Below, piece by piece: positions 13,444 through 44,799 of a DNA stretch of 64,000 bases. The stretch's first letter is position 1. Each line of letters opens with the position of its first letter. Location: positions 321-64,320 of the forward strand of contig CAMWQA010000002.1 of assembly GCA_947176265.1 (NCBI GenBank), written 5' to 3'. Position numbers and translations under genes: made by a program. This stretch comes from an uncultured Clostridia bacterium. Lineage in GTDB: Bacteria > Bacillota > Clostridia > Christensenellales > UBA3700. The notes under the pieces are model-generated. The model saw only the letters and a list, made by a program, of their open reading frames with translations, did not search any database and was not told the origin of the DNA.

Positions 13444-14367
13444 TTACTCAAAATATCTGTCTACAACTTGCCTAATATCGTCGATGGTCTTACAAACGTA
13501 CGCGTCAAGTTTGATTTGTCGTTGTCCGCGCATACCTCGGCAATAATACGCCAATTGTTTTTTGAAATTGCACGCGACGAAGTTGGGATGATGAAACTCA
13601 AGCATCGTATTGAGATGCGTCAATATATCTTGCTTAAGCGAATAATTCTCGATAGCAATTCCCTTTATGTCGCTGAAAAGTTTGGGATTGCCTAGCGCGC
13701 CTCTCGCAATCATTGCGCCGTCGCAACCCGTGACTTCCATTGCCTCTTGATAGCTCGCCCTATCCACTATATCGCCGTTGACAAATATGGGAATATCGAC
13801 TGCCTTTTTGACTTTGGCAATCTCCTGCCAATCAGCCTTGCCGGAATACATTTGCTCGCGCGTGCGACCGTGTACGGTTATTGCGCTTGCGCCTGCGTCC
13901 TGCATTGCCTTGCCGAAGTCTACCGCAACTATCTTATCCGCGCTTACGCCTATACGGTATTTTACCGTAACGGGTTTGCCTGTCACTCTTGCCGCCTTGA
14001 CGACCTCTTGCGCCAAAGGTATATTCTCAAGTAGCGCGCTACCCTCTCCGTTCTTGACAATCTTGGGGACGGGACAGCCCATATTGATATCTATTACGTC
14101 AAATTTCTCAAGCGCCTTGTGCTCTACCGCCTTGGATATGTAATAGGGCTCGCTGCCGAAAATCTGCACGCACTTGACCTTCTCGCTGTCGGTGGTACGC
14201 AGTAGATCTTGCGTCCTTTCGCTTCCGTAAATCAAGCCCTTTGCGCTTACCATTTCGGTATACGTCATATCCGCTCCGCGCATTGCGCACACCTTTCGCG
14301 CGCCCACGTCGCTGTAACCTGCTATGGGGGCGAATACCACGCCTTTAAACTCAATTCTTTGCGGCAA
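13444..14367 (-). CDS. dusB: tRNA-dihydrouridine synthase
   Basis: FAPIAGYSD, DINMGCP, ITVHGRTREQ and GDI...GCDGAMIARGALGNP motifs. The ORF track starts at TTG 14403, but GGGAGGAAG sits 6 nt upstream of a TTG at 14367. That start leaves only a 17-nt overlap with mazG. Confidence 0.85.
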   Translation of the reverse strand: MPQRIEFKGVVFAPIAGYSDVGARKVCAMRGADMTYTEMVSAKGLIYGSERTQDLLRTTDSEKVKCVQIFGSEPYYISKAVEHKALEKFDVIDINMGCPVPKIVKNGEGSALLENIPLAQEVVKAARVTGKPVTVKYRIGVSADKIVAVDFGKAMQDAGASAITVHGRTREQMYSGKADWQEIAKVKKAVDIPIFVNGDIVDRASYQEAMEVTGCDGAMIARGALGNPKLFSDIKGIAIENYSLKQDILTHLNTMLEFHHPNFVACNFKKQLAYYCRGMRGQRQIKLDAYVCKTIDDIRQVVDRYFE

Positions 14368-17503: not shown

Positions 17504-18028
17504 TTAACCGATATTGTACGTCAAGTACCCTGCCATTGCGTCGCACAACGCCATGTCTACTGCGCCGAGCTTCTCTGCAGAAAGAATGATGCCGCCGTAT
17601 AAATCGCCGCTGCTGATAAGCGGAACGATATACTGTTCTCCGTTTCTGACAACTTGCATATCGTCGACGAGACGCACGCTTCTGTCCTTGATAAGACGGC
17701 TCTTTCTGTCGTCAAGCACGCCGTAAAGTTCGTCGCTAATGTCTTCGCCTTGCAAGCCCTCTTTACCGCCTACGTGCGCCAAAATACTGCTTGTGTCGCA
17801 TATTGCGACTTCTTTGCCGGTATTCTTATAAAGCACCTTGCTTATTGCGTCAAGCTGCTCGGGAGTAGCGCCGACTTCGTTGTATTTTTTGAATACCAAT
17901 TCTCCGCTGTCGTTGGTAAAAATCTCGAGCAATTCGCCCTCTTTGAGTTTGAGTACTTTCCTCAATTCTTTGGGAATTACTACTCTTCCCAATTCGTCAA
18001 TTCTTCTTACTATACCTGTCTCTTTCAT
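17504..18028 (-). CDS. spoVT: Stage V sporulation protein T (AbrB-family regulator with GAF-like domain)
   Basis: MKETGIVRRIDELGRVVIPKELRKVLKLKEGELLEIF closely matches the SpoVT/AbrB swapped-hairpin N-terminus. 174 aa, like B. subtilis SpoVT. GGAGG sits 6 nt upstream of ATG 18028; the track start at 18055 is an extension. Confidence 0.85.
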   Translation of the reverse strand: MKETGIVRRIDELGRVVIPKELRKVLKLKEGELLEIFTNDSGELVFKKYNEVGATPEQLDAISKVLYKNTGKEVAICDTSSILAHVGGKEGLQGEDISDELYGVLDDRKSRLIKDRSVRLVDDMQVVRNGEQYIVPLISSGDLYGGIILSAEKLGAVDMALCDAMAGYLTYNIG

Positions 18029-18071
18029 ATTGACCTCCGAGCATAGTATAAGCAATGCAAAAAAAATTATG

Positions 18072-29443: not shown

Positions 29444-29458
29444 AATTCTTCCTCCAAA

Positions 29459-32400
29459 TTAAACAATGCCTGCTTTCTTTCTTTTCTTTACCACTACTAT
29501 TGCAGTGACTATCGCGCCAACCATCAATACGCCTACGGCTCCTATTGCAATACCGCCGTATATTGATATCTCTGCGCTGTTGATTTCGCCGACGTCTAAG
29601 TTCCAATATCTATCCAAATAGTAATTGCTATCAGTCAGTACAAGCACAACCGTATATCTTCCGTCCGGCAGTTTGCCGTCTTCATCCAATTCAACGACGT
29701 TGCCCTTTCTGTCGCGATATTGCAAAGCGCACTCGACAGTCGTTCCGTTTTCATCCACGTAATGACCTTTGTATTCGCTGAGGCTTAAACCGCTTGGAAG
29801 CTTTTTAGGCAAGGTATTGCCAATCTCTTTATACGGCAAGAGCGCCTGTCTGATAGTAATGTTGGTCTTGACTACCAAATCTTCATAGTTGGCAGAACTC
29901 AACGTAACTTCGCCGCTATAGTATGACGGACCTACGCCCTCTTCAATACGCACGTTGGTAGCAAAAGCGTTGCCGTCGGTGTTGCCGCTCTTGATAAGTA
30001 CCGTTTCGCCCTTATATTGATACGAACCGTTGCTGTAAACGAGATCGGGACCGGTAAATGTTACGCCGTGTCTTTTACCGTCGTATACGACGTCTACGAT
30101 AGAAGCGCTTATGTTCTCCATTTTAGCCTTTTTGATAACGACCTTAGTCTGCAACTCTTTGGTAGCGTAGCCTGATTTATCAACGGACATATACACGGTG
30201 TATTCTCTTGCGTCTTTGAAGGTAAATTGCTTAAGAGCCTCGTTTACCTCGGTGCCGTCGCAATAAATTATGTTGACGTTGTATTGTAAAGTAACTTTCA
30301 AGCCGGTGTAGTTAAGCAATCCGCCTACCGTAGGCAAGTGATTATTACCGTCATACACAACCTCTACAGGGTTAAAGGTAATACCTGTAAGCTCTGCTTC
30401 ATTGATAACCATAACTACGTCGATAGAGCTTTCATTATAATCGTCGTTGCCGAGATACTTTATTTTATACTCGTATCTTCCCGTCTCGGAGTACCAGCCG
30501 CCGCCCTCGTTAGGTTTTGCAGCGACGTCTTTAAAGGTTCCGTCGGAGTCTTTGTATTGAACTTTTACGACGCCTTCCGCAGGAGAACTTGCCGACCAAA
30601 GCTGCTTATTGCTCGAAGACCTAACCTCTGCGACAGCTTTGACCAAATCAAAGGTAAATTTCTCTGACGTGAAGCTGTAATCCAACACAACTTTTTCCAC
30701 GTTGACTTTCGTCTGCGCGCTTGTAATTACGAGATAGCCCTCAGCGTAATCGTTCTTGGGGAAGAAGTTGGGGTTATCTTTTGTTACAAACTCTACCTTG
30801 ACGAAGTAATAACCTCTTTCCGTCGGATAACTCGTCATAGCGTCATCGCTTACTTTGCCGTACACTTTTCTATCCGCAGCGTTATACACAGCGCCGTCAA
30901 GATACTTGTAATACGTTACTTGTACGTCTTCCTCTTCATAAAGTTCTTTTGACTCTTCAGGGATAATCAAGTCGTATTCTACGTCTCCTTCCGTAAAGTC
31001 TTTTACTCTTAAGCCCGTCTCAATTTCCAACTGTCCTCTTGCTATATTAAACTTGAAGGACGATTGACCGTCGATTTCGTAATTGCCGTCGGGCAAAGAG
31101 AGATTGACAGTATACAATCCTACCGCGCCCAAAGCATTGACCGGCTTGTCATCAAGCGTGTATTCGACGTTAGCCTTTTGAGTTTCGCCGTTGACGTCAG
31201 TATACGTACCGGTAATAGCATGCGTTCTGCCTGCCTTAACGCCTGTAGGTATGTTGCCTATCTCGCCGCCGTCAAATCTCAAATCAACCGAAACTAATTT
31301 GCGTTCTATTTTGATATTCGTAGAATTGACGTTATACTCAATATTATTGTATCCGTTGGGGTTTATACCCTTTACCGCATACTCGCCGAAATTTGCCGTA
31401 GACGAAGCCTGCGTTTCGATTTGAACGGTCACGTATTGATCCGTCTGCTCGACGTATACTTCTATCTCGGTTGGCACTTCGTCTCCGTAATAATAAGTTA
31501 TAGAACCGTTGAAAGCTTCTTGCTCGCTAAGTTCGATAGTGACTTGCAACTTATTGATCTTTGCGTCTATTTCAACGCTCTCCCTGTATGTATCCTCTGC
31601 GACCTCAACGTCTTCGTAGAAATTGATTGCCATCAAATCGGTAAAGTACACGATATAGTTGTAACCGTCAGTGCCTTCCAAAACTACTTGGAAAGACAAC
31701 TTCGTATCTCCCACTTCCGTCGACGCATATTTCAACTGAACGGGAACTATACCTTTGTTGCCCACGTTTATTTTAGGTCTTGAGAACATTCCTGCCGGAG
31801 AATATATTACTCCCAACTTGTGGTCCTCTTCGTCAAAGAAGAAGGGGCTTGTATTAAGTTTTGACAAGTCGGTATAGAACTTGTATTCTTTCTTGCCGTC
31901 ATACTCGTCGGTACCGTCGTATTGCTTGTCAAAGAACTTGGATTTTTCCTCTTCGTCTTGCAAAATTTCCTCAACGGTCTTTGTGACGCCGTTGTCGTCG
32001 ACAAAAATATTGTTAAGATTGGTATCAATATAGATATTGGCAATTCTCAGCCAGATTACGTACGAACCAATTACGTAGTCTTTCTGTGGATCGCCCGCAA
32101 TTACTTCGTCGTACAAACCGACTTCGTTGACCATCTTAAGCTTAAAATCGTCGCCTTTACCGGTAATTACGTCGCCCATATTCCAATCAATGGTAAAGGT
32201 CTTGACTGCTCCGCTATCCGCCGTCGACAAAGTATCGGAAGGTAGCCAAATATCATTGCCTTGCTCGTCTCTTTGATAGCTGTACCAAAGTTTCCAACCC
32301 GACGCGCCGAAATCCGCTCTATAGAATACCGATACGTTTTGAGTACTGTAATTAAATCTACCGGTATTACTGTACGACGTACCCGCAAACTTGAGTTTAC

Positions 32401-35233
32401 CTTGAACTCTGTCAACGTTGAAATGCAAATCTACGGTAGTCGTATTACCGCTTGCGTCCACGTAATACAAACTCATAGGATTGCTGTCGCTTATCGTAAC
32501 CACAACCGCTCTGTCTCCGTCGTTACTTAGGACGGTCTCGTCAATATACGCGCCGGTAGCCGCTATCGCAATACCCGACTTTTTATTATCGCTTACGGAG
32601 AACTTCGCCAAAATTTGATTTTTGGTCCACTGCTTTTGATCGTTTGCAAACTCGTCGTATTGCAACGCTTCCACTTCGTCTTCGGACAAAAGTCTTTCCT
32701 CGCCGTCTTCAATCATATAATACTCGATTTCGCTTACTTCGGGGGCTTCGTTGTCTATGCGCACTGTCACGCTTTCGCTGACTGCTACGACAACATACTC
32801 TCCAGTAAGAGCGTCTTGCTTATATGCGTAGAAGGTATATGACGTACCGTTTTTACCAGTACCTGCAGGCAAAGTGGTTTTATTTACTGTATATCTTGCT
32901 CCGTAGCCCTCTGCCGTAGCGATATTATTGATGAAATTCTTTGCCGAATCTGCGGGGAATACGCCGTTGCGTTGGAACTCAAATCTATCAAAGTCCGTTC
33001 TGCTGTTCATTATGAGTTCGAACGTAACGTATTCTTGCCAGCCGTCCGTAGTCGTAGTGCCATTACCAAACTTGAGTTCGCCTTGCAAAATGGTAAAGAG
33101 ATAATCAGACGTCGGCTGCCAAGCAAGCATTCTCTGCTCTTCGCTGTAATAACCGTACGTGCGTTGGCCGAGTTTTGTTTCAACCTTCATTCTGTACGTA
33201 CCAGGCATATATGCCTGACTAAGCGCAATTTTTTTATCGCTACGCGTGATATTCCACAAACTTTCATTTTTGAATACGTCAGAACTAAACGCAGGATAAT
33301 TTGTCATCGTCACTGTAGGAAGTTGAAGCGGATCGGCAGCGCCATTGTACGGCTTAACTAGTTTACCGTTCTCTCCATTGGTATCGGTATATTCCAAAAT
33401 ACCCATTCTGCCGAATTCATAGTTGTATTTACCGCTTTTTTTAGAAGATATCATATATATCTCCGCATATATTGGGTCGTCAAGAATAAGAGATATGTGA
33501 TTGGACGAATCATTGGCGCTTTCAAACTTACCTGACCAGATAAAGCCGCCGCTGTCGCCCGTATGCATCTTATATTGATAATATGACGCTCCGTTCAAAT
33601 CATAAGCGTCCATCTCGCTCTCGCTGAAATCGTCGTGACCGTCGGCAACTATATGTACTCTTATATCGAAAGCCGGATTCTCCATATCAAATTTTGCCGT
33701 GATATATCCGCCGTCCGTCGTTGGATTGATTTCCACCCAATTCTTAAATTTCATAGCGGAATCCAATACGAATTTTCCGTCGCTTGCCTTAAAGTGTTCT
33801 ATTTGACAAAAACCTGCATTTGGATTTACATTGGTTTCCGCCAACGTCTCTAAGCTATAGAGTAATGCAACGCTCAAAATGTTATCGTCAGTACCGACCG
33901 CGCCGAAAAGCGAACCGAACGTTTCTTTCGAATTATTGTCCATATTAGTAAATCTACTGCCTGTCCAAGACGAGATGATACCTTGTATCTGTCCGTATTG
34001 CAATTGCGGATCTTCATTGTCGCCGTAACAGTCCAAAATAGACATATTGCCGCCAATCTTAACGCAGCCTCCTACAACTCCTCCGGCATAAATCTTGAAA
34101 TATGCCGCCTTAGGAGCTCTGTTGCCAAATGCCTTGACAGCTCCCGTACCCGTCAACGCGCAATAAGTGATTTTTCCCGTACCGGAGTCAAGATTGCCGA
34201 CGAGTCCGCCTGCAACGGCAAAACTGGTACGGTCATCGGTAGAAAGTCCGCCCTGTCCTTGCGCTCCTGCAAAAACTCCAGTGCCGCTTGCGAGATCCAC
34301 CCAACAGTTGTTTATAACGCTGTTGTTTTCTGCTCTGCCGGCAATAGCGCCTGCGTAACAGCCGTTTTCAAGATACCATCCGTGTTTAGTACCCTCTTTC
34401 TTTACTACGGTAAAAGCGCTGGTAACGTTGAGTTTTACGTTGTCAATTGAACCGCCGTATCCGTTGAGTCCCGTGATGATACCTGCGCAAAGCATTCCCT
34501 CTTGACTGGAGAGTATCTTATTTGTGGCATCCATACCCAAAGCGCCGATTACGTCTTTTCCCGTTTGACCTTTATCCGCCTCTATATTAGTGTGAGGAGA
34601 GTTATAATTTATAGTACAGTCCTTAATCGTGCCGTAGTTTTGAGCAACCAAAAAGCCTGTGTATTCATACCATACGTTTGTACCGTCATATTTTTCGCCT
34701 TGTCTTCCGTACGTTGCTCTTGTCTCATCGGTAACAGCGGTAATTTTATCGCTGTCATTTGTTCCGCCGGCATTTCCAGATCCGCCGTAGATATTTATCG
34801 TATAACCGTTGCCGTCCAAGACGCGTCCCGACTGAAAAATGGCGTTGGAACTGTTGACGTTTACCCTATCGTATCCTGATCTATCGGAGTTGTAAGAAAG
34901 ATAAACGTCTTTAGTCAAAAAGCCTACTTTCCTATTCACGATGCCATTGAGGAAGTTATACAGCTCGGCTCCGGTTGATATTTGATATATATTGGAATCA
35001 GCCAAATTATCATATTTTTGTCTCATATCCGCCAATTGTAAATGAGCCGCAGTGGTACCGTTTTCGCCTTGATATTCTGCCTTATACAAAGTGCCTGCGG
35101 CGGCTTGCGCCTTAGGTTGGGAGTTGGATAAATGCATTACCCCAACCAAAGCCAGCGCAAGCGCCACTATTATGGCAACTGATATTAGGCTAATTCTTTT
35201 CAAAGTCTTTTCTTTCATCTGATTTTCCCCCAT
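29459..35233 (-). CDS. Giant surface protein 3 (1924 aa): GLUG/beta-helix-like head, Ig/MBG-like repeats, C-terminal TM anchor
   Basis: Signal peptide ending PKAQAAAG. LDGNGYTINI and AGGLVGNLDSGTGKITYC / AGGVVGGCVKIGGN motifs. YDGNNHLP and YDGKRHGV modules. C-terminal segment GGIAIGAVGVLMVGAIVTAIVVV followed by KKRKKAGIV. The start ATG at 35233 overlaps the upstream stop (TAATG); an ATG at 35218 with GGGGGA upstream is an alternative. Confidence 0.9.
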   Translation of the reverse strand: MGENQMKEKTLKRISLISVAIIVALALALVGVMHLSNSQPKAQAAAGTLYKAEYQGENGTTAAHLQLADMRQKYDNLADSNIYQISTGAELYNFLNGIVNRKVGFLTKDVYLSYNSDRSGYDRVNVNSSNAIFQSGRVLDGNGYTINIYGGSGNAGGTNDSDKITAVTDETRATYGRQGEKYDGTNVWYEYTGFLVAQNYGTIKDCTINYNSPHTNIEADKGQTGKDVIGALGMDATNKILSSQEGMLCAGIITGLNGYGGSIDNVKLNVTSAFTVVKKEGTKHGWYLENGCYAGAIAGRAENNSVINNCWVDLASGTGVFAGAQGQGGLSTDDRTSFAVAGGLVGNLDSGTGKITYCALTGTGAVKAFGNRAPKAAYFKIYAGGVVGGCVKIGGNMSILDCYGDNEDPQLQYGQIQGIISSWTGSRFTNMDNNSKETFGSLFGAVGTDDNILSVALLYSLETLAETNVNPNAGFCQIEHFKASDGKFVLDSAMKFKNWVEINPTTDGGYITAKFDMENPAFDIRVHIVADGHDDFSESEMDAYDLNGASYYQYKMHTGDSGGFIWSGKFESANDSSNHISLILDDPIYAEIYMISSKKSGKYNYEFGRMGILEYTDTNGENGKLVKPYNGAADPLQLPTVTMTNYPAFSSDVFKNESLWNITRSDKKIALSQAYMPGTYRMKVETKLGQRTYGYYSEEQRMLAWQPTSDYLFTILQGELKFGNGTTTTDGWQEYVTFELIMNSRTDFDRFEFQRNGVFPADSAKNFINNIATAEGYGARYTVNKTTLPAGTGKNGTSYTFYAYKQDALTGEYVVVAVSESVTVRIDNEAPEVSEIEYYMIEDGEERLLSEDEVEALQYDEFANDQKQWTKNQILAKFSVSDNKKSGIAIAATGAYIDETVLSNDGDRAVVVTISDSNPMSLYYVDASGNTTTVDLHFNVDRVQGKLKFAGTSYSNTGRFNYSTQNVSVFYRADFGASGWKLWYSYQRDEQGNDIWLPSDTLSTADSGAVKTFTIDWNMGDVITGKGDDFKLKMVNEVGLYDEVIAGDPQKDYVIGSYVIWLRIANIYIDTNLNNIFVDDNGVTKTVEEILQDEEEKSKFFDKQYDGTDEYDGKKEYKFYTDLSKLNTSPFFFDEEDHKLGVIYSPAGMFSRPKINVGNKGIVPVQLKYASTEVGDTKLSFQVVLEGTDGYNYIVYFTDLMAINFYEDVEVAEDTYRESVEIDAKINKLQVTIELSEQEAFNGSITYYYGDEVPTEIEVYVEQTDQYVTVQIETQASSTANFGEYAVKGINPNGYNNIEYNVNSTNIKIERKLVSVDLRFDGGEIGNIPTGVKAGRTHAITGTYTDVNGETQKANVEYTLDDKPVNALGAVGLYTVNLSLPDGNYEIDGQSSFKFNIARGQLEIETGLRVKDFTEGDVEYDLIIPEESKELYEEEDVQVTYYKYLDGAVYNAADRKVYGKVSDDAMTSYPTERGYYFVKVEFVTKDNPNFFPKNDYAEGYLVITSAQTKVNVEKVVLDYSFTSEKFTFDLVKAVAEVRSSSNKQLWSASSPAEGVVKVQYKDSDGTFKDVAAKPNEGGGWYSETGRYEYKIKYLGNDDYNESSIDVVMVINEAELTGITFNPVEVVYDGNNHLPTVGGLLNYTGLKVTLQYNVNIIYCDGTEVNEALKQFTFKDAREYTVYMSVDKSGYATKELQTKVVIKKAKMENISASIVDVVYDGKRHGVTFTGPDLVYSNGSYQYKGETVLIKSGNTDGNAFATNVRIEEGVGPSYYSGEVTLSSANYEDLVVKTNITIRQALLPYKEIGNTLPKKLPSGLSLSEYKGHYVDENGTTVECALQYRDRKGNVVELDEDGKLPDGRYTVVLVLTDSNYYLDRYWNLDVGEINSAEISIYGGIAIGAVGVLMVGAIVTAIVVVKKRKKAGIV

Positions 35234-38200
35234 TAACCCATCTGATTGTCAAGTACGTGGATCTTCATCGTACAAGTCTGGGCAATATCTCCGCTACATA
35301 CGGTTACTTCGACTTCCATTGCGCAGTCTGCAACTTCTTCAGCTGTGGTAATTACGTGATTGAGGTTCTTTCTCAAGTCGGTAATTACCATACTGCCTTC
35401 GGCGTCTTTGCTCCATCTGAGCGTAGCGGCATTCGTAGTATCGTACTTTATCTTCGTAAGATCAAGCGTAACGTCGTATTTGCCAGAAGTACCGTCGTCA
35501 AAGATGACGGTTCTGCTAAGCGTCAGCTTTTGGGTCGCCTTTGCAGTTTCGCTCAAGTTAGTTCCGCCGACCATGATATACTCTACGTCGCCCGAAATAG
35601 TAACCGCTTTCTTGGCTTTCACTTCAACTATGACTTTGTATTCCTTATTGAAGTTGGAGTTGCTAGCCTGCACGGTAGTTCTTACGGTGTAATAATCGGC
35701 AATACTGTAGTTGATTTCCGACAAGTTCCATACGATTGGCACGTTGAAGTATTCATAAACTTCCGCCGATTTAATCGTAATAGACTCGCCGTTGGTTGCA
35801 ACGAAGTCTTTGATATATTCAATATCAGTCTCCGTCTGGGTCAAAGTCTTGCCGTCTTGCTCATACGTGATCACGTATTTCAAGAAAGTCTTATTGACTT
35901 TTGAGATATTTGCCGACGCAACTTTTCTACCCACGATTTGATATGTCGCAAGATCGATCGTACCTACGCTTTGATACAAATTGGTATTGTCTGCGTAGAC
36001 GTCGTAAAGTCTGTTGCCTCTCTCGTCCATAGTATATATGTACGGGTCAATAGCCATTTCCGTCAATTCAGACTTGAGATTATTTCTGTCGATAATCTCC
36101 ACGTTGATGTCAAACGAGTACTGGTCATTGAGCTTAAGCGTAGCCGTAAGGTTCTTTCTGCCCTTCATGGTTATCGCAAAGTTTCTCTTCCAGTGGCTGT
36201 CGTTGACTTTGAGTACGGATGTCTTTCCGCTCATATATTTTACAGTTACTTCGCTTGGGAACGGCTCCATTCCGTAATACAATACCTGAACAGGATCGAT
36301 ATAGAATGTTCCGCCCATAAGTTCGCTACCTGCGACCATGATGCCTGCAGGCACACGGTTCTCAACTTGAACGTTGACGAACTTCTCTTGCAAGAGAGTG
36401 CCGTTGATTTGGCTGTACTCTACTATTTCGCCCGTACGAGTGTACGTGTCAATGTCAAAGCCTATTACTACTTCAAACTGTCTGAATTGAGCAGGTCTAT
36501 CCGGATTGATAATAAAGTCTTCAAGTCCCTTCCAAGCAATCGGCATATAGTATACCGCGCCGTTGGTAAACTGAACGTAAGCGTGGTCAGGGAAGTTCTT
36601 AACTCCTTCGCCGTTGATGATATATTGGAACGGATCTATGAAGAGCGCCGACTGCGTCAACTTCTCGTCAAAGTAGACTGCTTCGACCTCGTTTCTCAAT
36701 ACCGCTACCTGCGTCTTATTGAACGTCCAAGTAAACGAACTGTTTGGATAAGCTTCCTTGTCCAACGTAATTTCGACTTGATTTACTTGGTCGTTGTTGT
36801 TGTTCCAATCGAATAAGACGTTGTTCATCTTTCCCCAAGCGACGTGAACGTCCTCGTTGTACTCTTCTTTGATGGTCTTTTGATTGGTTGCGCTCTCCGC
36901 CTTATTAGGATCATACTTCGGATTTGCGTACTCGTCGAGATAGTTTGCTTCAACAACGCTCGGGAACGGATTTTCATCGCTCTCGCCTATCATATACATA
37001 TAGTATTTATATGGATCGATATTGATAGTATTTACAGCGTCGTTTATCGTCAACGAATATACTTTCTTTGTCTTAACGACGAAGGTCAACTCAACCGTCT
37101 GCGGAGCTTTTCCGTCGAATGCGGCAATTTTAGACGTGATTGTAAACTGACCGCCGCTTACGTCCGTAGAATATCCGTTTACGAGTTTTCTGCCAAAGAG
37201 GTTTTGCTGAGCCTCTTGGGTATTCCAACCGCCAATTACGTCAAGTCCGACAGCCTTACCGTCAGGATACTTGAAGAAGAGCGTCTCCGGAGTATAATCC
37301 TCAATGCTTGAAGCATTGGCATTTTCGTCTCCGATATTGATATTGAAATCGTACAAGTTAATGTTGACTTCGGTACCCTCAGTGCCGTCGATTATTATTT
37401 TGTCTATGGTACTGTCGAGATAGTGTATCGTCAACGGCAACTTAGCGCCGTTCTTGAAAGCAACGGTAGCTTCGACGTCGTGCTCCTCATATTTCGTCGG
37501 TCTCCAACCTGATACCGACAGATATTGAGTATTGATCTTTTGAGTCTTGCCGTCGTTGGTAACGATAGTCAAGAAGTCAGGCAACGAATCGTCGTAAGCG
37601 TGCATCTCTATGTCTTCAATTGACTTGAGACCGCCGCCGTCGCTACGCGGGTCAATGGATATCTTCAACTCTTTATGTATTCCGCCCGAGAAGTCGGCAA
37701 TTGCTTTTACTTTAAATTCTTTACCTCTATTCAACATTGCTTTAAGGTTTGCGGCAACCATATTTTGCTCGTCTTCGCCGTTCATAATCTTAAAGACAAC
37801 GTTGGCTCTCATGATAGTAGTACCCTTTTGGTAAATAGCTACCTTCTTTTCGAAATTGGTTGCAATAAGTTCATTGACGCCTGCGTCGATTGACGAGTAG
37901 ATATACGGTATGAAGGTAATATCTACCGGTATATCCGCCCAAGTCACGAGACCGTTGTTTTCGCCGTCAGCCGTAGATTCTCCAACGCTCTTTGAAGAGT
38001 TGTAGATAAATATCTCCGTGAAGTATCCGGGGTTGTCTTTAGCAGCGGAGTTGCCGCCTCTGGAGTCTCTGCCCTTGTCGTACGCTATACCCTTATTCGG
38101 GTCGTTATCTATATAGATATGTTCGCCTTTATCCTGTCCTTTGAAGTGGATATTGGATATAGTCGCGTCAACCACGTTGATTTCAAGCGTAGCCGTATTC

Positions 38201-41200
38201 CATACCGCAAACGGCAACAAACCTGATACTATCTGTCTTACTTGATAGAATATATCGCCTAACATCCAATCTAAAGCTCCCAGCGCGCCTGCCGCGGTGC
38301 CTTGACCGATACCTCTCAAGAAGCTTTGGAGCAAAGGCACGATGACTTCTCTTAAATCGCCCCAGAAAGTATTGCTCTTGCCTTTAGTGCCGTAAATTTC
38401 TCTTGTCCAAGTGACCATACCGAGATAGTCCTTGTCAAACATATCGGGTGCCATCTTTTGCAGATTGACTATTGATTCGTGGCCGGTATTTTTTGCAAAT
38501 ACGTGGCTCATAATATCGTCAATAAGTTTATTTATAAGATATACGTCGAAATTAATCGTAACATTGAAAGTTCCGTTGGCTCTAAGATTGAGCATTATAC
38601 CTCTCTCGCCAAGCAGCTTGACTATGTCAAGTTCTGCAAATACCTTTGCAAGTCCCGTAGGCTCTTCGCCGGCAGCAGGCTCGGCAGCGTACGTGGAAGG
38701 TTCGCCGCCCAAAGAAACTTGCGCCGCGTCATTATTGCCCAAATTATCGAGCGCGCCGTCTATAGTCGAGAACAAATTGTCGATTACAGGCGCCAACATG
38801 CCTACGAGATCCAAATCTATATATTGCATGCCCACCGTATCGCCGATATCGATACCTGCAACCGATACGAGATTGGAACAAATCGCCAACGTCAATTGAC
38901 CAGAAGTCTTTCTGTGGTCAAGTACGATATATACGAGCGGATCTGCGCTTGCATTTTTGGATTGATTGTCGTCGTACATTGCCTTGTTGATATGCGCGAG
39001 CGTAACTACGAAAGTGCCTTGCGGAGCAGTAGGAGTTCCCTTGACGTTTGTAAGTTTCTTACCTGCAGAAGCCGTGACTTTCTCGATGATGATTCTCGTA
39101 TACATCTTGTAGTCGTCGGATACTGTGTCTTTGTTAGAACCTTCAAGGTCAACCGTGTCGCCCGTAAAGTTGGCAAGGTCGATGGTAAAGCCTATATCGA
39201 GATTGTTGAGCAACGTCGTCGTAAATTCTTTTCCGCTTGCCGCATTCCAGTCGGGCACGTCGTCAAAGTTGATAGGTATATTGACCGGTTTACCCAGCGA
39301 CAAACTGAGCGTCAAATCCATAAAGACGTCTTCTACTTGGAAGCCCATCTTGAAACTGTCTCCAAATAGGTCGAATACGCCGTCCAATCCGAGGTTGAGT
39401 CCAAGATTGATGCCAATCAAATCGTTGAGCATACCGTTGATGATAGAAGACGTGAAGTCGATTACGATTGCCGTATTCTCCAAATGGATAGCTTGCGTCA
39501 AATACTTGACGAAATCTTTGATTTCCAAGCCTTCGCCAATCGTAGCGACGCCGCTGTCAGCTGCAACTTCCTCATTCAAAGCAAGTTTGTCTGTGCCTTC
39601 GGGAGATGCGCCTACCGTCGGCAAACCTGCATTCTTCAACAAATCGTTAATTATGTCGTTGAGGTCAAAATTGCCTATATTCTTTATGAGACCGTCTACC
39701 ATCGTAAATACCTTGGTAACTATCGTCGAATTGACGATTTCGCCGCTGAACAAGCCAAGACCCGTAAGATCGATGATTATGCTGTTACGGTGTATATACA
39801 ATCCCAAAATGTTCTTCAGACCGTACTTCAATTCAAGCGATATCTTGCTGTTGGAGAATCTTGTCAAATCAAGGTCCCAAGATATTGCAAGCTGAACTTG
39901 AGCGTTCCAATCGTCAAGGTCGAGGTACATCGGTAAATCGAGTTTCTTGCCCGCGTTTGCCAAAACGTTGTTAATCAAACGCGTGAGGTTCATCTCGTTG
40001 TCAAGAGTTTGAAGGTCAATATCAAGCACTACGGAAGCTCTTCCTACCGTGTCGAGAATTGCGTCTATCAAATCAGACTTAAAGTCGTTAAATTCTTGCG
40101 ATTTCTCCTCGATAGGATACTTGTGTTCCCCGAGATCGCCCACGATTACCGGATTGTCTGAAGTACCTGCCGAGAATACGAGATGCATATTGCTGCCGTA
40201 GTTATACTTCTTAGTCGTATAATAAACTACGTCAGGATTAGGTTTTTTCTCGTCAGCAGGTTTATCTTTGATATTTCTGTATACCTTGCCTGCCTCTTTT
40301 GCAATAGGCTCGCCTTTTGCGTCAAAGTAGTATACTGCCTCTCCGTTCTCGTCGAGTTTAGGTATAAAATCTCCGATAAGTTTAAAGATAAAGCCGTCTT
40401 TTCTGCCAAGTTCAACTGTCAAATCCACTTCCATAAGGCTGAGCGCCTCTGCAAGAGTATTGCCCAAATCGGTATTGGCTGCGCTTAGTAATGCAAGTAT
40501 AGACGCCAAAGATATAGACGGTATGAATTTATCGGTATTGAATGCAAATATTATTGCTTGAGCGGGATCGATTTCTCTCGCCTGAGCGTAAGTCGCAATA
40601 CCCGAGGTATTCTGCGTCGCGCCGTCAGCGCTTTGAGTTGCTACCTGAGAATTAAGTCCAAGCAATTCTTTAAAGTCAAGCTCAAATTTCAAATCTCCGT
40701 CCTGTACGTTGATTTTGGTAAGCAAATCTCCTACTACGTTGTCAAGTAACGAGTATATCAAATCAGTGAAGTTGAGCGAGAAACTCAATTTCGGCAATAC
40801 GATACCTGCAATATTGAAATTAGAGATATCTATATAAATATTATTATTATATCCGTATATACCCAACAATACTTTATTAGGCTCTATAATCTGATGGTTG
40901 CCTACTTTGATACCGCTTTCCGTCTTCATCTCCAAGACTATCATTGATTTTGCCGTATCTGTCTTATTGAGGGCAATTTGCAAGTTGAGCGAAGCGTCGA
41001 GAACAAAGTCGTTGTCAAACGTCCACAAAATCTGAGAATTCTCTACTTCTTGCACTCCAAAACCTGCAATAAACGGCGCAAGGTCATAAGTACCCTTATC
41101 AAAATTCATTGTAAATCCGCTGCTGAATCTAATACCGCCTAGTACATGGTCGATTACGCCGTTGAGCGACGTGAGATAATCCTCTCCGCTGCCCACTCTG

Positions 41201-43194
41201 CTGTCTATGTAATCCGCCAAATCGTCGTCTTTTAATCCGATAAAGAAATCGCCGATTGAAAGAGCAATCGCAAGCGCAGGATCGGTAACTATAATCGTGC
41301 CATTGCTATTCTCCGGATCGGGCACTTTAGACGTATTATTGAGCGTCGTGCTGACAGAAACGCTGTCAAGTCCAACTTCCGAAGTATTGATTGACAATAC
41401 TATATCGCCGATTTCTTTTGGCAAAGATATCGTTTTCAAAGCGGGTATAAGACCGCCAAGCGTTTCGAAGAAATTGTCGTTGACGACCAACTTTATACTT
41501 GCTCCGTCTACGAAGATATTGGGTTCTTGGACGACTACTCCGTCTTTAATTTTTTCATTCAAGCCCAATAGCTTTGCTATTGCGTCTACAAAATTGCTGA
41601 TACCTGCCGATAGCTTAAAGCTTCCGTCGTCTTCGGTAGCGAGGGCAACGACGCTTGCGCTAGTAGTAGAAAGTACTTTTTGCACTGCGGACATACTTGA
41701 GAGATTGAGCGAACCGTTATCGTTTACGGTAAGTTCGCTCTTGCGAAGTCCGGCAAAGTCAAGTCCGAATACTCCGTCGATAGCGTCGGTAATGAGATCT
41801 ACGAGATAATCAACCAAGTCTGTAAGACTTGCGTCGAGTTTTATGTTGAGACCATTGAGATAATTGGGCAACATATTATCCGTGTTGAGGTAGAAACTGC
41901 CTTCCGTATAATAGATTCCCATTTGAGGCTTGCTCTCAACGGGTACGCCGTCTGTATTGATAAGGAATAGTTCGATAGCAATCTTATTATTGTCTACCGG
42001 TAATTTGTCGTAGTTGAGGTCGAGATCGATCTTGAAAGCAAGTCTTATTCCAGTGCCGCCCTGCACGAGTATCAGACCTTCGGGTATTCTGAAAGTCGTA
42101 GACGCGCCGAGGAAGCTGTTGATCAATTTACCTAAGTCTAATCCTTTTTGATGACCTTCTTCGTCTTTGACGGAATCAACTATCAAGTCGATTGAGAATT
42201 GCAAATTGGTAAAGCTGAATTCAGATATAGCTCTGTCCGCCAAGTCTCCGGGCAAGCCTATATCCAAATCTGCGGTGTTGCGTATTTGGAAGAACAAGTC
42301 GATGTCAAACGTCTTGTCTTTACCTCCTGCGCTTTCTCCGCTCAAACCTGCTCCTGCAAAACTACCGTCGCTTGCGAATTGAGCGTCTATATACATGGTG
42401 TCATCGGGAATTAAATTAGCAATATAAGAAATAATAGGCTCAATGTCAATAGGGAGTTGTACGAGCGAGCCAATCAAACCTGCAGCTTTGCCTAAAAGCC
42501 CCTTAAGCTTCATTTCCATCCTTATTGTTTGGGAATTATCGTCATTATTAGTCACTACAGGTTGTTCAAAAAGCAAACCGAATACCATGTCAAGGTAGCC
42601 TGTAATATCAATTGTACCCAAGAGGTCTCCGACTTTATCGCCTGCGCCCTGCACTAATTGGACGACGTAATTGAAATCAAAATCAGACAAATAGATGAGC
42701 GGAGTCGTGCCGTCTGCCAAATCTATGTAAATCTTGTCGTTGACTATATAAATAGCAAAAACCAACTGCTTTTGCGTATTTGCAACGGAACTCTTTTGCT
42801 GTTGATAAACGGCAAGGCAAAGTTCGTTGCGAATTTCGTTGTAGAAATTGCCCTTCAAGTTTATAGTCGTAATCTTATCTTTGATATCGGCTTTGACCTC
42901 GATATCAATATTGAGAGCCTGCTCGGGCACTTCAACGGATTCTATAATCTTGTTAAACACGCCCATAGGATCCAGTGTAACTACTACAGGCGGCTTTGGT
43001 TTTGTTCCAATAAGAGGATCATCGGGATTATTAGGATCTTCTATTGGGCCTGGGTTTCCACTTTCAATCGGTTTATTTCCGCTTTCCCCATTGTTACCGC
43101 CGCCATTAGGCTTACAGGCAACGAGCGTCGTGAGCAGAGCAATCGCCAAAACTGCTATCAACACGAATACGGTAATTAACTTGGTCTTTTTCAT
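35233..43194 (-). CDS. Giant lipoprotein 4 (2653 aa): about 1650-aa uncharacterised beta-rich/helix-punctuated region + Big_4-like Ig modules
   Basis: Lipobox LLTTLVAC followed by a G/N/P-rich linker. The long N-terminal part has recurring LxDxLxxxLG-type helices. The C-terminal third has modules of the type FPSEVTVKYMSGKTSVLKVNDSHW and LPDFLTIVTNDGKTQKINTQYLSVSGW. GAGGGA RBS at 43198-43203. Confidence 0.9.
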   Translation of the reverse strand: MKKTKLITVFVLIAVLAIALLTTLVACKPNGGGNNGESGNKPIESGNPGPIEDPNNPDDPLIGTKPKPPVVVTLDPMGVFNKIIESVEVPEQALNIDIEVKADIKDKITTINLKGNFYNEIRNELCLAVYQQQKSSVANTQKQLVFAIYIVNDKIYIDLADGTTPLIYLSDFDFNYVVQLVQGAGDKVGDLLGTIDITGYLDMVFGLLFEQPVVTNNDDNSQTIRMEMKLKGLLGKAAGLIGSLVQLPIDIEPIISYIANLIPDDTMYIDAQFASDGSFAGAGLSGESAGGKDKTFDIDLFFQIRNTADLDIGLPGDLADRAISEFSFTNLQFSIDLIVDSVKDEEGHQKGLDLGKLINSFLGASTTFRIPEGLILVQGGTGIRLAFKIDLDLNYDKLPVDNNKIAIELFLINTDGVPVESKPQMGIYYTEGSFYLNTDNMLPNYLNGLNIKLDASLTDLVDYLVDLITDAIDGVFGLDFAGLRKSELTVNDNGSLNLSSMSAVQKVLSTTSASVVALATEDDGSFKLSAGISNFVDAIAKLLGLNEKIKDGVVVQEPNIFVDGASIKLVVNDNFFETLGGLIPALKTISLPKEIGDIVLSINTSEVGLDSVSVSTTLNNTSKVPDPENSNGTIIVTDPALAIALSIGDFFIGLKDDDLADYIDSRVGSGEDYLTSLNGVIDHVLGGIRFSSGFTMNFDKGTYDLAPFIAGFGVQEVENSQILWTFDNDFVLDASLNLQIALNKTDTAKSMIVLEMKTESGIKVGNHQIIEPNKVLLGIYGYNNNIYIDISNFNIAGIVLPKLSFSLNFTDLIYSLLDNVVGDLLTKINVQDGDLKFELDFKELLGLNSQVATQSADGATQNTSGIATYAQAREIDPAQAIIFAFNTDKFIPSISLASILALLSAANTDLGNTLAEALSLMEVDLTVELGRKDGFIFKLIGDFIPKLDENGEAVYYFDAKGEPIAKEAGKVYRNIKDKPADEKKPNPDVVYYTTKKYNYGSNMHLVFSAGTSDNPVIVGDLGEHKYPIEEKSQEFNDFKSDLIDAILDTVGRASVVLDIDLQTLDNEMNLTRLINNVLANAGKKLDLPMYLDLDDWNAQVQLAISWDLDLTRFSNSKISLELKYGLKNILGLYIHRNSIIIDLTGLGLFSGEIVNSTIVTKVFTMVDGLIKNIGNFDLNDIINDLLKNAGLPTVGASPEGTDKLALNEEVAADSGVATIGEGLEIKDFVKYLTQAIHLENTAIVIDFTSSIINGMLNDLIGINLGLNLGLDGVFDLFGDSFKMGFQVEDVFMDLTLSLSLGKPVNIPINFDDVPDWNAASGKEFTTTLLNNLDIGFTIDLANFTGDTVDLEGSNKDTVSDDYKMYTRIIIEKVTASAGKKLTNVKGTPTAPQGTFVVTLAHINKAMYDDNQSKNASADPLVYIVLDHRKTSGQLTLAICSNLVSVAGIDIGDTVGMQYIDLDLVGMLAPVIDNLFSTIDGALDNLGNNDAAQVSLGGEPSTYAAEPAAGEEPTGLAKVFAELDIVKLLGERGIMLNLRANGTFNVTINFDVYLINKLIDDIMSHVFAKNTGHESIVNLQKMAPDMFDKDYLGMVTWTREIYGTKGKSNTFWGDLREVIVPLLQSFLRGIGQGTAAGALGALDWMLGDIFYQVRQIVSGLLPFAVWNTATLEINVVDATISNIHFKGQDKGEHIYIDNDPNKGIAYDKGRDSRGGNSAAKDNPGYFTEIFIYNSSKSVGESTADGENNGLVTWADIPVDITFIPYIYSSIDAGVNELIATNFEKKVAIYQKGTTIMRANVVFKIMNGEDEQNMVAANLKAMLNRGKEFKVKAIADFSGGIHKELKISIDPRSDGGGLKSIEDIEMHAYDDSLPDFLTIVTNDGKTQKINTQYLSVSGWRPTKYEEHDVEATVAFKNGAKLPLTIHYLDSTIDKIIIDGTEGTEVNINLYDFNINIGDENANASSIEDYTPETLFFKYPDGKAVGLDVIGGWNTQEAQQNLFGRKLVNGYSTDVSGGQFTITSKIAAFDGKAPQTVELTFVVKTKKVYSLTINDAVNTINIDPYKYYMYMIGESDENPFPSVVEANYLDEYANPKYDPNKAESATNQKTIKEEYNEDVHVAWGKMNNVLFDWNNNNDQVNQVEITLDKEAYPNSSFTWTFNKTQVAVLRNEVEAVYFDEKLTQSALFIDPFQYIINGEGVKNFPDHAYVQFTNGAVYYMPIAWKGLEDFIINPDRPAQFRQFEVVIGFDIDTYTRTGEIVEYSQINGTLLQEKFVNVQVENRVPAGIMVAGSELMGGTFYIDPVQVLYYGMEPFPSEVTVKYMSGKTSVLKVNDSHWKRNFAITMKGRKNLTATLKLNDQYSFDINVEIIDRNNLKSELTEMAIDPYIYTMDERGNRLYDVYADNTNLYQSVGTIDLATYQIVGRKVASANISKVNKTFLKYVITYEQDGKTLTQTETDIEYIKDFVATNGESITIKSAEVYEYFNVPIVWNLSEINYSIADYYTVRTTVQASNSNFNKEYKVIVEVKAKKAVTISGDVEYIMVGGTNLSETAKATQKLTLSRTVIFDDGTSGKYDVTLDLTKIKYDTTNAATLRWSKDAEGSMVITDLRKNLNHVITTAEEVADCAMEVEVTVCSGDIAQTCTMKIHVLDNQMG

Positions 43195-43232
43195 AATTCC
43201 CTCACTTATGATTGCTGATTTATTACACGTTT

Positions 43233-43266
43233 ATTTTAGAATATAAACCTTAAACATACCTTAAAC
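43233..43266 (-). promoter_or_regulatory. Activator-type promoter candidate: two 11-bp-phased GTTTAAGGT repeats replacing the -35, plus a TAAAAT -10
   Basis: Plus-strand ACCTTAAAC at 43247-43255 and 43258-43266. Minus-strand TAAAAT at 43233-43238, 8 nt downstream of the proximal repeat. No TTGACA-like hexamer lies at the proper distance. Confidence 0.4.
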
Positions 43267-43390
43267 TTTTTTACCGCCTATATATACGCGTGCAATAATA
43301 GATAACGATTGGTCATATTTTTAACGCTATGCCCACTATATCTAGTGCACAGTGTCAAATAAAGCACTAAAAACCCATCAAAAAGCCTTT

Positions 43391-43412
43391 ATAAATTTTA
43401 CATAAATTTTAC
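43391..43412. promoter_or_regulatory. Exact tandem duplication of an 11-mer (ATAAATTTTAC x2), possible regulator binding site
   Basis: 43391-43401 and 43402-43412 are identical. It lies 43 nt downstream of the response-regulator stop and about 200 nt upstream of the giant-operon start codon. Confidence 0.4.
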
Positions 43413-43454
43413 ATTTGAATTATTAAAAGTTTCTTAAAATAGAATAAATATATC

Positions 43455-44138
43455 TCAATCCGACGCGGCAGATTTTGCGTCCGACCACATGTATCCCAAG
43501 TTTTTTATAGTCTTGAGATATCCTCCGCAACCGTAACTTTCCAGCAATTTTCGTAATTTCGACATATACACTTCAATGACCGTGATGACGGTCTCGCTGT
43601 CAAGTCCCCATATTTTATTGAAAAGTTGATCTTTGGAAACGATGATATTACGGCTGCGTATAAGACATTCCAAAATATCATATATTTTGCCCGACGTCTT
43701 AACGTATTCCCCGTTGATTTTGAGCATCTTGCTGTTGTAATCCAGCTCTATGCCGTCGTTGACGTACTTGCTGTAGAAGTTATCGTTATAACGACGGAGT
43801 ATTGCTTCGGCTCTTGCCAAAAATTCCTCTCTGTGAAAAGGTTTTACAATATAGTCGTCTGCGCCTGCCCGCAGACCTTCAATCCTTTTTTCGACGGTAC
43901 TGAGCGCAGAAACAATCAAAATTGGACAGTTGCTCTTTTTCCTCAAAGCCCTTATTATCTCTATTCCGCTCTTTTTAGGCAATATCAACTCCAAGACGAC
44001 TAGGTCGTACGCCTTAGCCTCTGCCATATACAATCCGTCTATGCCGTCGTATGCGCTTTCGCAACTTCCCAACTTGCTAAGCGTTTCGACGATACTTTGA
44101 TTGCTTTTATTGTTGTCGTCAATAACCAAAAACTTCAT
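43455..44138 (-). CDS. OmpR/PhoB-family response regulator, atypical (Glu at the phospho-acceptor position), orphan
   Basis: 227 aa. Receiver domain (VIDDN..., LVVLELILP, ILIVSALS, DDYIVKPF) plus a winged-helix output domain (IYDILECLI...VIEVYMSKLRKLL...TIKNLGYMW). Codon 50 is GAG at 43989-43991. AGGTGA RBS. Confidence 0.85.
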   Translation of the reverse strand: MKFLVIDDNNKSNQSIVETLSKLGSCESAYDGIDGLYMAEAKAYDLVVLELILPKKSGIEIIRALRKKSNCPILIVSALSTVEKRIEGLRAGADDYIVKPFHREEFLARAEAILRRYNDNFYSKYVNDGIELDYNSKMLKINGEYVKTSGKIYDILECLIRSRNIIVSKDQLFNKIWGLDSETVITVIEVYMSKLRKLLESYGCGGYLKTIKNLGYMWSDAKSAASD

Positions 44139-44190: not shown

Positions 44191-44220
44191 ATTATATCAC
44201 AAAAATGCGCAATAAATCAA
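44191..44220 (-). promoter_or_regulatory. sigma-A-type promoter (extended -10) of the response regulator gene
   Basis: Minus strand: TTGATT (44215-44220), 18 nt, TGaTATAAT (-10 at 44191-44196). Confidence 0.5.
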
Positions 44221-44262: not shown

Positions 44263-44799
44263 TTATTTCTTCAATTTCTTGAAAAATCCTTTTTGCGACG
44301 CGCAAAGTGGACACATTTGCGGAGCTTCCGCGCCTTGAGACGAATATCCGCACTTTATGCACTGCCATTTGACTGCCTTGCCGTCTTTATAGAGTTTACC
44401 CGTCTTAAGCTCTTCCATCACGCCTTTGAGTTCTTCTTCCGTCGCGCTGTCGACGCCGGCAACTTCTTCTATAACTCCCGCGATATACTCAAAGCCCTCT
44501 TGTCTTGCCGTCACGGCAAAGGCTTCTTTCAATCTTTCGGCGGAAGCGTGCAACTGACCCGCGCAATATATCAAATTAGCGAGCGTATCCACTTCGTCTC
44601 CCTCTTGCATAATTCTATACAGCGCTCTGCAGTGTTCGCTCTCTTGGCGGGCAATTTCGTCAAGTCTGTCCGCAACGGTAAAATATCCTTGCTCTCTTGC
44701 CCTGTCGGAAAAGACTCCCAACACAGCCATATTTTTCCCTCTGCTCTCTATCTCTTTGATGATATTTTCATACGTCTTGCTCTTGTCTATAGTCTTCAT
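44263..44799 (-). CDS. Rubrerythrin-family protein (ferritin-like domain + C-terminal rubredoxin-like CxxC...CxxC)
   Basis: 178 aa. QESEHCRAL (ExxH) in the first half and WQCIKCGY...MCPLCAS at the C-terminus. GGGAGG RBS. Confidence 0.8.
   Translation of the reverse strand: MKTIDKSKTYENIIKEIESRGKNMAVLGVFSDRAREQGYFTVADRLDEIARQESEHCRALYRIMQEGDEVDTLANLIYCAGQLHASAERLKEAFAVTARQEGFEYIAGVIEEVAGVDSATEEELKGVMEELKTGKLYKDGKAVKWQCIKCGYSSQGAEAPQMCPLCASQKGFFKKLKK

Follow-up and report, generated by a model that had tools for sequence, protein, structure and literature searches.

Receiver domains that lack the phosphorylatable aspartate account for ~4% of all receivers and for ~2% of receiver (REC)-OmpR architectures, and glutamate is the commonest replacement (26%) (PMC4395418). 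Glutamate at this position is often phosphomimetic, and an aspartate-to-glutamate change often, though not always, activates the protein (PMC4395418). Most characterised atypical regulators are orphans, and pseudo-receivers with glutamate at the phosphorylation site are common; how pseudo-receivers are activated or inactivated remains a mystery (2025 review, PMC12632262). ChxR, CmrT and AtvR are OmpR-type precedents with glutamate (PMC4395418, PMC12632262, PMC12548384). Here we describe a regulator of this already known kind. It is encoded in a stretch of 64,000 nucleotides (nt) from an uncultured Clostridia bacterium (assembly GCA_947176265.1, contig CAMWQA010000002.1, positions 321 to 64,320 of the forward strand; hereafter the window), just upstream of an operon for giant lipoproteins. 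What the locus adds is a within-genus pair of states, a predicted DNA site and regulon, and an unusually clean evolutionary trajectory.

Like ChxR of Chlamydia trachomatis, the regulator combines the OmpR/PhoB architecture with glutamate in place of the acceptor aspartate, and it has no partner kinase. ChxR is reported to form phosphorylation-independent dimers, to bind direct repeats and to activate transcription (PMC3960148, PMC4395418, PMC12632262). In contrast to ChxR, the other active-site landmarks of the regulator are all canonical, and its aspartate-type ancestral state, complete with kinase, survives in congeneric species. No ChxR chain was among the 60 listed of 257 Protein Data Bank (PDB) sequence matches, and thus no ChxR-specific relatedness was seen among the matches listed. 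CmrT (cmrRST of Clostridioides difficile) and AtvR (Pseudomonas aeruginosa) are likewise OmpR-family pseudo-receivers with glutamate at the acceptor position (D) and most conserved residues kept (PMC12548384). CmrT, for which constitutive activity has been inferred, governs phenotypes of the cell surface and of the colony in a member of the Clostridia (PMC12548384). However, CmrT is not an orphan, being encoded with a kinase and a second regulator, and it lacks the proline at D+4 and carries a DGD motif, whereas our regulator is an orphan with an intact acidic pair (DD), P(D+4) and G(D+8); the likeness to CmrT is one of residue features.

HP1043 (HsrA) of Helicobacter pylori is also an orphan of the OmpR family and acts independently of phosphorylation, and its structure (2hqr) matches the regulator over the full length (expectation value (E) 6.1e-20; Foldseek rank 32). 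HP1043 is described as an essential global regulator with a highly degenerate receiver (PMC8345958), whereas our regulator departs from the canonical receiver at the acceptor alone and has a predicted regulon of two operons. RitR and HP1021/CemR are OmpR-type pseudo-receivers, likewise orphans, in which cysteine chemistry has taken the place of the kinase. The cysteine of HP1021/CemR is located at DD+19 in the alpha1-beta2 loop, near C26 of the regulator, that of RitR in the linker, and RitR structures were among the Foldseek matches. Unlike in the regulator, the acceptor residue of these proteins is not glutamate (asparagine in RitR), and the likeness lies in the position of cysteines whose reactivity in the regulator is hypothetical.

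The phospho-acceptor position of the regulator is occupied by glutamate

The phosphorylatable aspartate at the end of beta3 is absent from the 227-amino acid (aa) product of the regulator gene, an open reading frame (ORF) that starts with ATG (Table 1), and Glu50 is found instead. An initial annotation of the window had placed Glu50 on the acceptor column. Indeed, in phmmer alignments to solved OmpR-family structures, which the protein matches over the full length, the query 'ydlvvlelilp' pairs with 'fdvvildimlp' of DrrD (1kgs), and the same column holds for 'ivldinmp' of PrrA (1ys6) and 'ivlldlmlp' of RegX3 (2oqr). The coordinates given for the GAG codon were correct, and the acidic pair, the Ser/Thr position and the conserved lysine had rightly been read as kept. 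The remaining landmarks of the receiver are canonical: D7, D8, P54 (D+4), G58 (D+8), S77 (Thr/Ser position), Y96 (K-3) and K99. Contigs of three gut-metagenome runs reproduced the sequence including the unchanged glutamate codon, which is not an assembly error. The regulator is a receiver-domain protein without the acceptor aspartate, i.e. an aspartate-less receiver or pseudo-receiver by the definitions of PMC4395418 and PMC12632262.

The assignment to the OmpR/PhoB family was consistent across methods. By Pfam, residues 4-110 form a Response_reg domain (PF00072; 74.6 bits, cut-off 30.2; E 8.7e-21) and residues 145-217 the Trans_reg_C winged helix (PF00486; 57.6 bits, cut-off 26.2; E 1.4e-15). 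All NCBIfam equivalogs (PhoB, CtrA, WalR and others) remained far under their cut-offs, the best being CtrA with 158.5 bits against 350. The AlphaFold2 (AF2) model, with a mean predicted local distance difference test (pLDDT) score of 91, consists of a (beta/alpha)5 receiver, in which Glu50 directly follows beta3, and a winged helix with the recognition helix at residues 187-201. Foldseek matched this model to OmpR/PhoB regulators only, and the receiver superposed on those of ArlR, DrrD and YycF with a root-mean-square deviation of 0.8-1.1 Å. The active-like look of the modelled receiver was given no weight, since AF2 cannot tell the states apart.

Glutamate is the fixed state of a single clade

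Orthologs of the regulator with glutamate at the acceptor position are referred to as E-type and those with aspartate as D-type. A locus search over genome contigs gave distant paralogs only, dominated by the generic DDYIVKPF pattern, and was replaced by a search of family genomes. Protein searches returned a tight ortholog group in uncultured Clostridia, followed by a gap to matches at ≤45% identity. All members of the ortholog group down to 61% identity carried glutamate at the acceptor, and a sister group at 56-65% identity carried aspartate. After removal of duplicates, the acceptor was glutamate in 30/30 E-type and aspartate in 37/37 D-type orthologs. Both GAG and GAA are used in the E-type clade; GAT and GAC are likewise one third-position change away from the glutamate codons, yet they were never seen there.

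When regulators of species-representative genomes from the window's family were placed on a maximum-likelihood tree, the E-type sequences formed a single supported subclade (98/92) within the window's genus, g1, as sister to a D-type subclade of that genus. Two aspartate-bearing sequences on very long branches inside this clade (P0051 and P0053) were excluded from the counts, their placement being unreliable. The nearest relatives of the regulator were D-type regulators of the same Clostridia family. The pairwise ratio of nonsynonymous to synonymous substitution rates (dN/dS, ω) among E-type sequences was 0.05-0.12, at a saturated dS of >1.3, and the ORF was intact in 8/8 E-type loci examined and in >25 sequence clusters across hundreds of samples. 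These results showed that glutamate is a fixed trait and not a strain-level mutation, and that the glutamate state is old, selected and of one origin.

The partner kinase has been lost in E-type genomes

An overlapping HisKA/HATPase_c kinase of 410-448 aa lies directly downstream of the regulator gene in 22/26 D-type loci and in 0/8 distinct E-type loci. The gene order is otherwise common to the E-type loci and the congeneric D-type locus L145, running SIS, DUF815 ATPase, NlpC/P60, regulator, optional kinase and giant. When the L145 kinase was used as query, full-length orthologs at 78-100% identity were found in four D-type genomes of the genus. The window's genome and six other E-type genomes (93-97% complete) contained only catalytic-core paralogs at ≤33% identity and no cognate kinase. 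Searches with two cognate D-type kinases by tblastn detected no kinase remnant in the regulator-giant spacers of the window and of L017, L028 and L024; the deletion was therefore clean.

The observation in the initial annotation that no histidine kinase is encoded in the 64 kb was borne out by whole-genome HisKA/HATPase_c scans, which had no match inside the window (C2:321-64320). In the window's genome (93% complete), each of the six HisKA kinases adjoins a regulator of its own, as does each of the other three HATPase_c proteins of kinase type, and the only unpaired regulators are the one described here and a 276-aa protein on contig C60, which is probably Spo0A, judged by length alone. Thus, the regulator is an orphan, with no kinase adjacent to it or unpaired elsewhere in the genome, and its description as an orphan OmpR-family regulator with glutamate at the acceptor is supported by the domains, the alignments and the kinase loss.

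Two kinases were considered and rejected as partners. The closest, a contig-end fragment (C2:70760+) ~22 kb off, belongs to a module of response regulator, ATP-binding cassette (ABC) transporter and histidine kinase (C2:66478-71146) that has its own Asp-type regulator. A regulator-kinase pair on contig C17, considered for the regulator as well as for the C17 operon described below, lies ~8.5 kb away from that operon behind metabolic genes, and its regulator is only 27% identical to ours. As to the presumed Spo0A, no obvious orphan sporulation kinase was found in the 93%-complete genome, because all six HisKA kinases are paired with regulators. In L024, the earliest-branching E-type locus, a gene-free spacer of 1.2 kb without a kinase remnant separates regulator and giant (L024:10667-11864). 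Another genus has independent kinase-less versions of the locus, at L141 and L146 (G011, G047) and at L142 and L143 (G035, G023). One version keeps the aspartate, with serine at the second acidic position (DD2) and histidine or cysteine replacing the conserved lysine; the other keeps all landmarks, but with serine at the threonine position. In both, a giant gene follows, and the box described below ends 10 nt before TATAAT.

Four receiver positions separate the two states

Fixed differences between E-type and D-type orthologs are confined to four positions of the receiver. From D-type to E-type, the changes are Glu→Asp at position 7 (DD1, the first of the acidic pair), Ser→Cys at 26, Asp→Glu at 50 and Thr→Ser at 77. 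Three of the four belong to the catalytic quintet, with one side chain longer and two smaller, suggesting a pocket that was re-fitted around the glutamate carboxylate and is not decaying. The alpha4-beta5-alpha5 segment retains the family-invariant G92, A93, D94, D95, K99, P100, E105, R109, R115 and R116. In G058, a fast-evolving E-type variant, the metal-binding DD2 and the glycine at D+8 are lost, and the glutamate, the rubrerythrin-like neighbour (see below) and the giant gene are retained. Loss of DD2 and of the glycine with the glutamate kept argues that the protein can now do without phosphotransfer chemistry. No clear signal of relaxation after kinase loss was seen in the kinase-specificity surface, helix alpha1 (E/D entropy ratio 1.08).

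A conserved direct repeat precedes two giant-lipoprotein operons

As the initial annotation had noted, the giant operon begins 260 nt downstream of the regulator gene and is co-oriented with it. Orthologs (2600-3500 aa) of its first gene, giant 1, follow the regulator, or regulator and kinase, in nearly every genome of the family. The linkage holds across genera, and related loci contain orthologous second genes of 1885-1900 aa. A phylogenetic footprint of four orthologous spacers (the window and three others) resolved discrete conserved blocks. The most widely conserved is a proximal box of the form TTTAAG(G)-N5-TTTAAG(G) at -71 from the giant 1 ATG, which is kept in E-type and D-type loci of several genera at 67-108 nt from the giant's ATG where the start is known. 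The candidate -10 hexamer TAAAAT follows the box, and no TTGACA-like -35 was found at the right distance from it. The spacing 'box, 5 nt, TAAAAT' is fixed in 10 G1-type promoters from E-type and D-type species, which have no -35-like hexamer. In genus g11, exactly 10 nt separate the box from TATAAT, a distance that matches the spacing of the pho box.

This layout resembles that of PhoB and its class II pho-box promoters, where two 11-bp direct-repeat units overlap or replace the -35. Unlike the pho box, the box of the window's genus ends 5 nt before TAAAAT, its half-site TTTAAGG is unrelated and its regulator presumably receives no phosphorylation input. The promoter of the giant operon is thus predicted to be activator-dependent with an OmpR/PhoB-style direct-repeat site, the regulator being the putative binding protein and activation the likely sign. 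A second, distal repeat is found at about -243 in four E-type loci and also in the D-type genome G045. Within the 64-kb window the pattern TTTAAG-N5-TTTAAK is matched twice, each time in the 260-nt spacer, against 0.14 expected. Upstream of the regulator gene itself no TTTAAG repeat was found, and therefore autoregulation is not evident. The sigma-70-type promoter annotated there was correct in position and sequence and is kept in six orthologous E-type loci.

In the 1.77-Mb genome, TTTAAG-N5-TTTAAG has two matches, both ahead of paralogous giant-lipoprotein operons. The genome contains dozens of genes for very large, mostly surface-type proteins, and among its ~48 ORFs of >1000 aa only these two operons have paired TTAAGG half-sites upstream. 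The second operon (C17:5382-15100), outside the window, consists of an 1826-aa lipoprotein gene (C17:9418-14898) followed by a 1353-aa gene. Its box, TTTAAGGTAAATTTAAGG, is situated ~200 nt upstream of the lipoprotein gene and has a third half-site 9 nt before GATAAT. Between the C17 proteins and giants 1 and 2/3, identity is as low as 23-27%, so that shared ancestry cannot explain the survival of the box in both promoters. Across 23 genomes of the genus, 24/30 sites returned as loci were followed 67-255 nt further on by a long ORF that opens with the same lipoprotein signal, and two genus members without the regulator (G053, G033) had no site.

The genome G056 encodes an intact E-type regulator (75% identical) from whose side the rubrerythrin-like gene and all three giants are gone, and it retains a C17-type operon with its box. 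This indicates a predicted regulon of two paralogous operons, not one. The initial annotation had called the regulator dedicated to the giant operon of the window, which is too narrow, although a regulatory link to that operon is backed by the family-wide synteny and the conserved OmpR-style direct repeat. At the G056 locus (L140, G056:C8:21000-40000) the regulator gene ends 16 nt before an HI0933-like flavoprotein gene; two separate deletions flank the retained regulator, unless this is an assembly artefact.

A former two-component regulator as a probable kinase-independent switch

We propose descent from an ordinary response regulator whose gene overlapped that of a membrane histidine kinase, just upstream of a giant-lipoprotein operon, an arrangement that is still present in sister species of the same genus. 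In the lineage of the window, the kinase gene would have been deleted in place, the acceptor aspartate replaced by glutamate and two neighbouring pocket residues re-tuned (Glu→Asp at DD1 and Thr→Ser), with the remaining switch apparatus and the alpha4-beta5-alpha5 dimer face staying under strong purifying selection. Because these parts are kept under selection, the glutamate carboxylate most likely mimics aspartyl-phosphate, so that the protein would dimerise and bind DNA without a kinase. The predicted target is the 22-bp box, in which the 11-bp unit TTTAAG(G)nnnn occurs twice and which, placed 5 nt upstream of TAAAAT in a promoter without a -35, would give a PhoB-like class II activator layout. 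Output may then be set by the amount of regulator made from its own conserved near-consensus promoter, possibly together with a non-kinase input. This reading as a whole, in which a former two-component regulator locked by glutamate controls giant-lipoprotein operons independently of a kinase, is in our judgement probably correct. The protein would bind the boxes, activate rather than repress, and be constitutively active. That its activity does not depend on aspartate phosphorylation is suggested by the kinase loss in seven genomes and the decay of DD2 in G058. The initial annotation had called the protein phosphorylation-independent, and the loss of the kinase in E-type genomes speaks for it; independence and constitutive activity are nevertheless strong inferences and not demonstrated facts. 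Its view of the change as phosphomimetic was right in that aspartate-to-glutamate replacements often activate, and too general in that they do not always do so when alone (PMC4395418).

Several observations weigh against the proposal. The change to glutamate alone fails to activate CheY, PhoB and Spo0A, and ChxR activity does not require its glutamate, DNA binding being kept when the residue is changed (PMC4395418). Two recognition-helix positions, 188 (Thr→Val) and 194 (Asn→Lys), are fixed differently between the types, although the box is kept in both. By hand alignment, position 194 corresponds to the base-contacting Arg201 of PhoB. The loose box pattern is not enriched genome-wide (43 sites against 35 for a reversed control in the 23 genomes), and only its positional association was therefore used. 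An exact proximal pair is missing from the two early-branching E-type loci, L144, where the second unit is a near-match (GTTAAG), and L024, where only one half-site is clear. If TAAAAT is the -10, the box spans about -39 to -18, and binding there could repress. The region was present in DNA gut metagenomes and in one doubtful 'RNA' virome run only, from which no transcription start was readable, so that the start, activation as opposed to repression, and binding to the boxes are all predictions from the DNA. Finally, clade-specific cysteines and the rubrerythrin-like neighbour hint that the activity is perhaps not simply constitutive.

The genus offers a natural before-and-after pair, in which the same locus, target promoter architecture and DNA box occur with aspartate and a kinase in one state and with glutamate and no kinase in the other. 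The four fixed receiver differences, three of them in the active site, permit a direct test of which substitutions give kinase independence. For the giant surface lipoproteins that abundant, uncultured Clostridia of the gut encode, the locus also gives a first entry point into regulation.

Alternative explanations

The alternative that survives best keeps kinase independence and gives up constitutive activity: the glutamate form would respond to a new input, through thiol or redox chemistry of C26 and C204 or through the rubrerythrin-like protein. Three cysteines are near-invariant in E-type sequences (C26 in 29/30, C158 in 25/30 and C204 in 29/30), and D-type sequences carry other residues there (Ser26 in 34/37, Tyr158 in 37/37, and no constant residue at 204). 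Moreover, just four receiver positions are fixed differently, and 26 is among them. In the AF2 model C26 lies at DD2+18, at the boundary of the alpha1-beta2 loop and beta2, and C204 follows the recognition helix; redox-switched orphans with a cysteine at DD+19 or in the linker are documented (PMC12632262). Gained on the same branch as the cysteines, the branch on which the kinase was lost, was a degenerate rubrerythrin-like gene directly upstream of the regulator, which stands beside it in E-type loci and in no D-type locus and was lost with the giants in G056. Its product has a clear rubredoxin-like C-terminal domain and a weak match to the di-iron Rubrerythrin domain (26.6 bits, no stretch passing alone). 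On the other hand, C158 takes the place of a buried hydrophobic residue in helix alpha6 and is thus probably structural, C71 is common in D-type sequences too, and the association with the rubrerythrin-like gene may be mere neighbourhood, the regulator having its own promoter. On balance we regard a new input of this general kind as unlikely, albeit worth keeping in view. Its sharper form, a glutamate-locked switch for giant lipoproteins in which the kinase was replaced by redox, peroxide or iron sensing, is rather doubtful. If true, a two-component system would have turned naturally, step by step, into a redox sensor of one component in a strict anaerobe, with both states alive in one genus.

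Returning to an activator locked by glutamate, a further alternative is that the regulator is a repressor or architectural factor, or that some other regulator acts on the TTTAAG boxes and the synteny of gene and operon is historical. The position of the box relative to TAAAAT suits repression as well, the TGTAAA-N5-TGTAAA repeat in the same region suggests that more than one factor may act, and in G056 the regulator is kept without adjacent giants. However, activator-dependent promoters typically lack a -35-like hexamer, as this one does; the box and the regulator occur together from genome to genome and are jointly absent in G053 and G033, and G056 retains the second operon with its box. An 11-bp-phased direct repeat is moreover the standard site geometry of OmpR/PhoB regulators (PMC12548384). 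We therefore consider these possibilities improbable.

Control by phosphorylation might also persist, if a non-cognate kinase or small phosphodonor modified another residue or a Ser/Thr kinase modified the DNA-binding domain. In favour of it, the protein has kept the acidic pair together with Ser77 and Lys99, and Ser/Thr phosphorylation of OmpR-family regulators is known in Firmicutes (PMC4601284). Such control is very hard to reconcile with a glutamate that is fixed without reversion, a cognate kinase absent from seven genomes, remaining kinases that are paired with their own regulators in the window's genome, and the G058 variant, which keeps gene and context without the metal-binding DD2; nor is a bacterial signalling role known for phospho-glutamate (PMC4395418). 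That the gene is a decaying, functionless remnant of a broken two-component system, as the missing kinase and the longer branches of E-type than of D-type sequences in the tree might suggest, is scarcely credible and already contradicted by the low dN/dS at saturated dS, the intact ORFs and the conserved promoter.

Features and neighbourhood of the locus

The features of the locus are collected in Table 1. Pfam gave no match on giants 1, 2 and 3 (2653, 1924 and 2184 aa).

Table 1. Predicted features of the regulator locus, in window coordinates
Feature	Position	Strand	Basis
OmpR/PhoB-family response regulator gene, pseudo-receiver (aspartate-less receiver) domain	43455..44138	-	ORF, Pfam, AF2, Foldseek
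GAG codon, Glu50, phospho-acceptor position	43989..43991	-	alignments to 1kgs, 1ys6, 2oqr
Regulator's own sigma-70-type promoter, TTGATT-18-TG-n-TATAAT	44191..44220	-	best in scan, 10/12 matches
Rubrerythrin-like gene, 178 aa, immediately upstream of regulator	44263..44799	-	Pfam RUBY_RBDX 3.4e-8
Control region, 260 nt, regulator gene to first giant gene	43195..43454	-	phylogenetic footprint
Distal TTTAAG-N5-TTTAAT repeat, just past the regulator's stop codon	43422..43438	-	repeat scan
TGTAAA-N5-TGTAAA direct repeat, second 11-bp-phased element	43397..43413	-	exact repeat, expected 0.02 per window
Proximal box, two 11-bp units TTTAAGGTATG + TTTAAGGTTTA, predicted regulator site	43244..43265	-	most widely conserved block
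TAAAAT, candidate -10 hexamer, 5 nt downstream of box	43233..43238	-	spacing conserved
Opening gene of the predicted target operon, giant lipoprotein 1 (2653 aa; lipobox LVAC)	35233..43194	-	ORF
Giants 2 (1924 aa) and 3 (2184 aa), closely spaced after giant 1	22889..35233	-	ORFs

The TGTAAA-N5-TGTAAA repeat, ~219 nt upstream of the giant 1 ATG, is kept in all six E-type loci and in the D-type locus L145. It has only three sites in the genome, the other two being at C1:32026 and C47:11510. The repeat fits the WalR-type consensus TGTWAH-N5-TGTWAH, and a second regulator may act in the control region of giant 1. Behind the giants, a conserved housekeeping run on the minus strand (window 17504-18055 to 13444-14403) comprises an HI0933-like flavoprotein, an FAD-dependent protein, a BspA-type leucine-rich repeat (LRR) protein, SpoVT, a Polysacc_synt flippase, MazG and Dus. 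The giant operon is an insert between the regulator and this conserved block.

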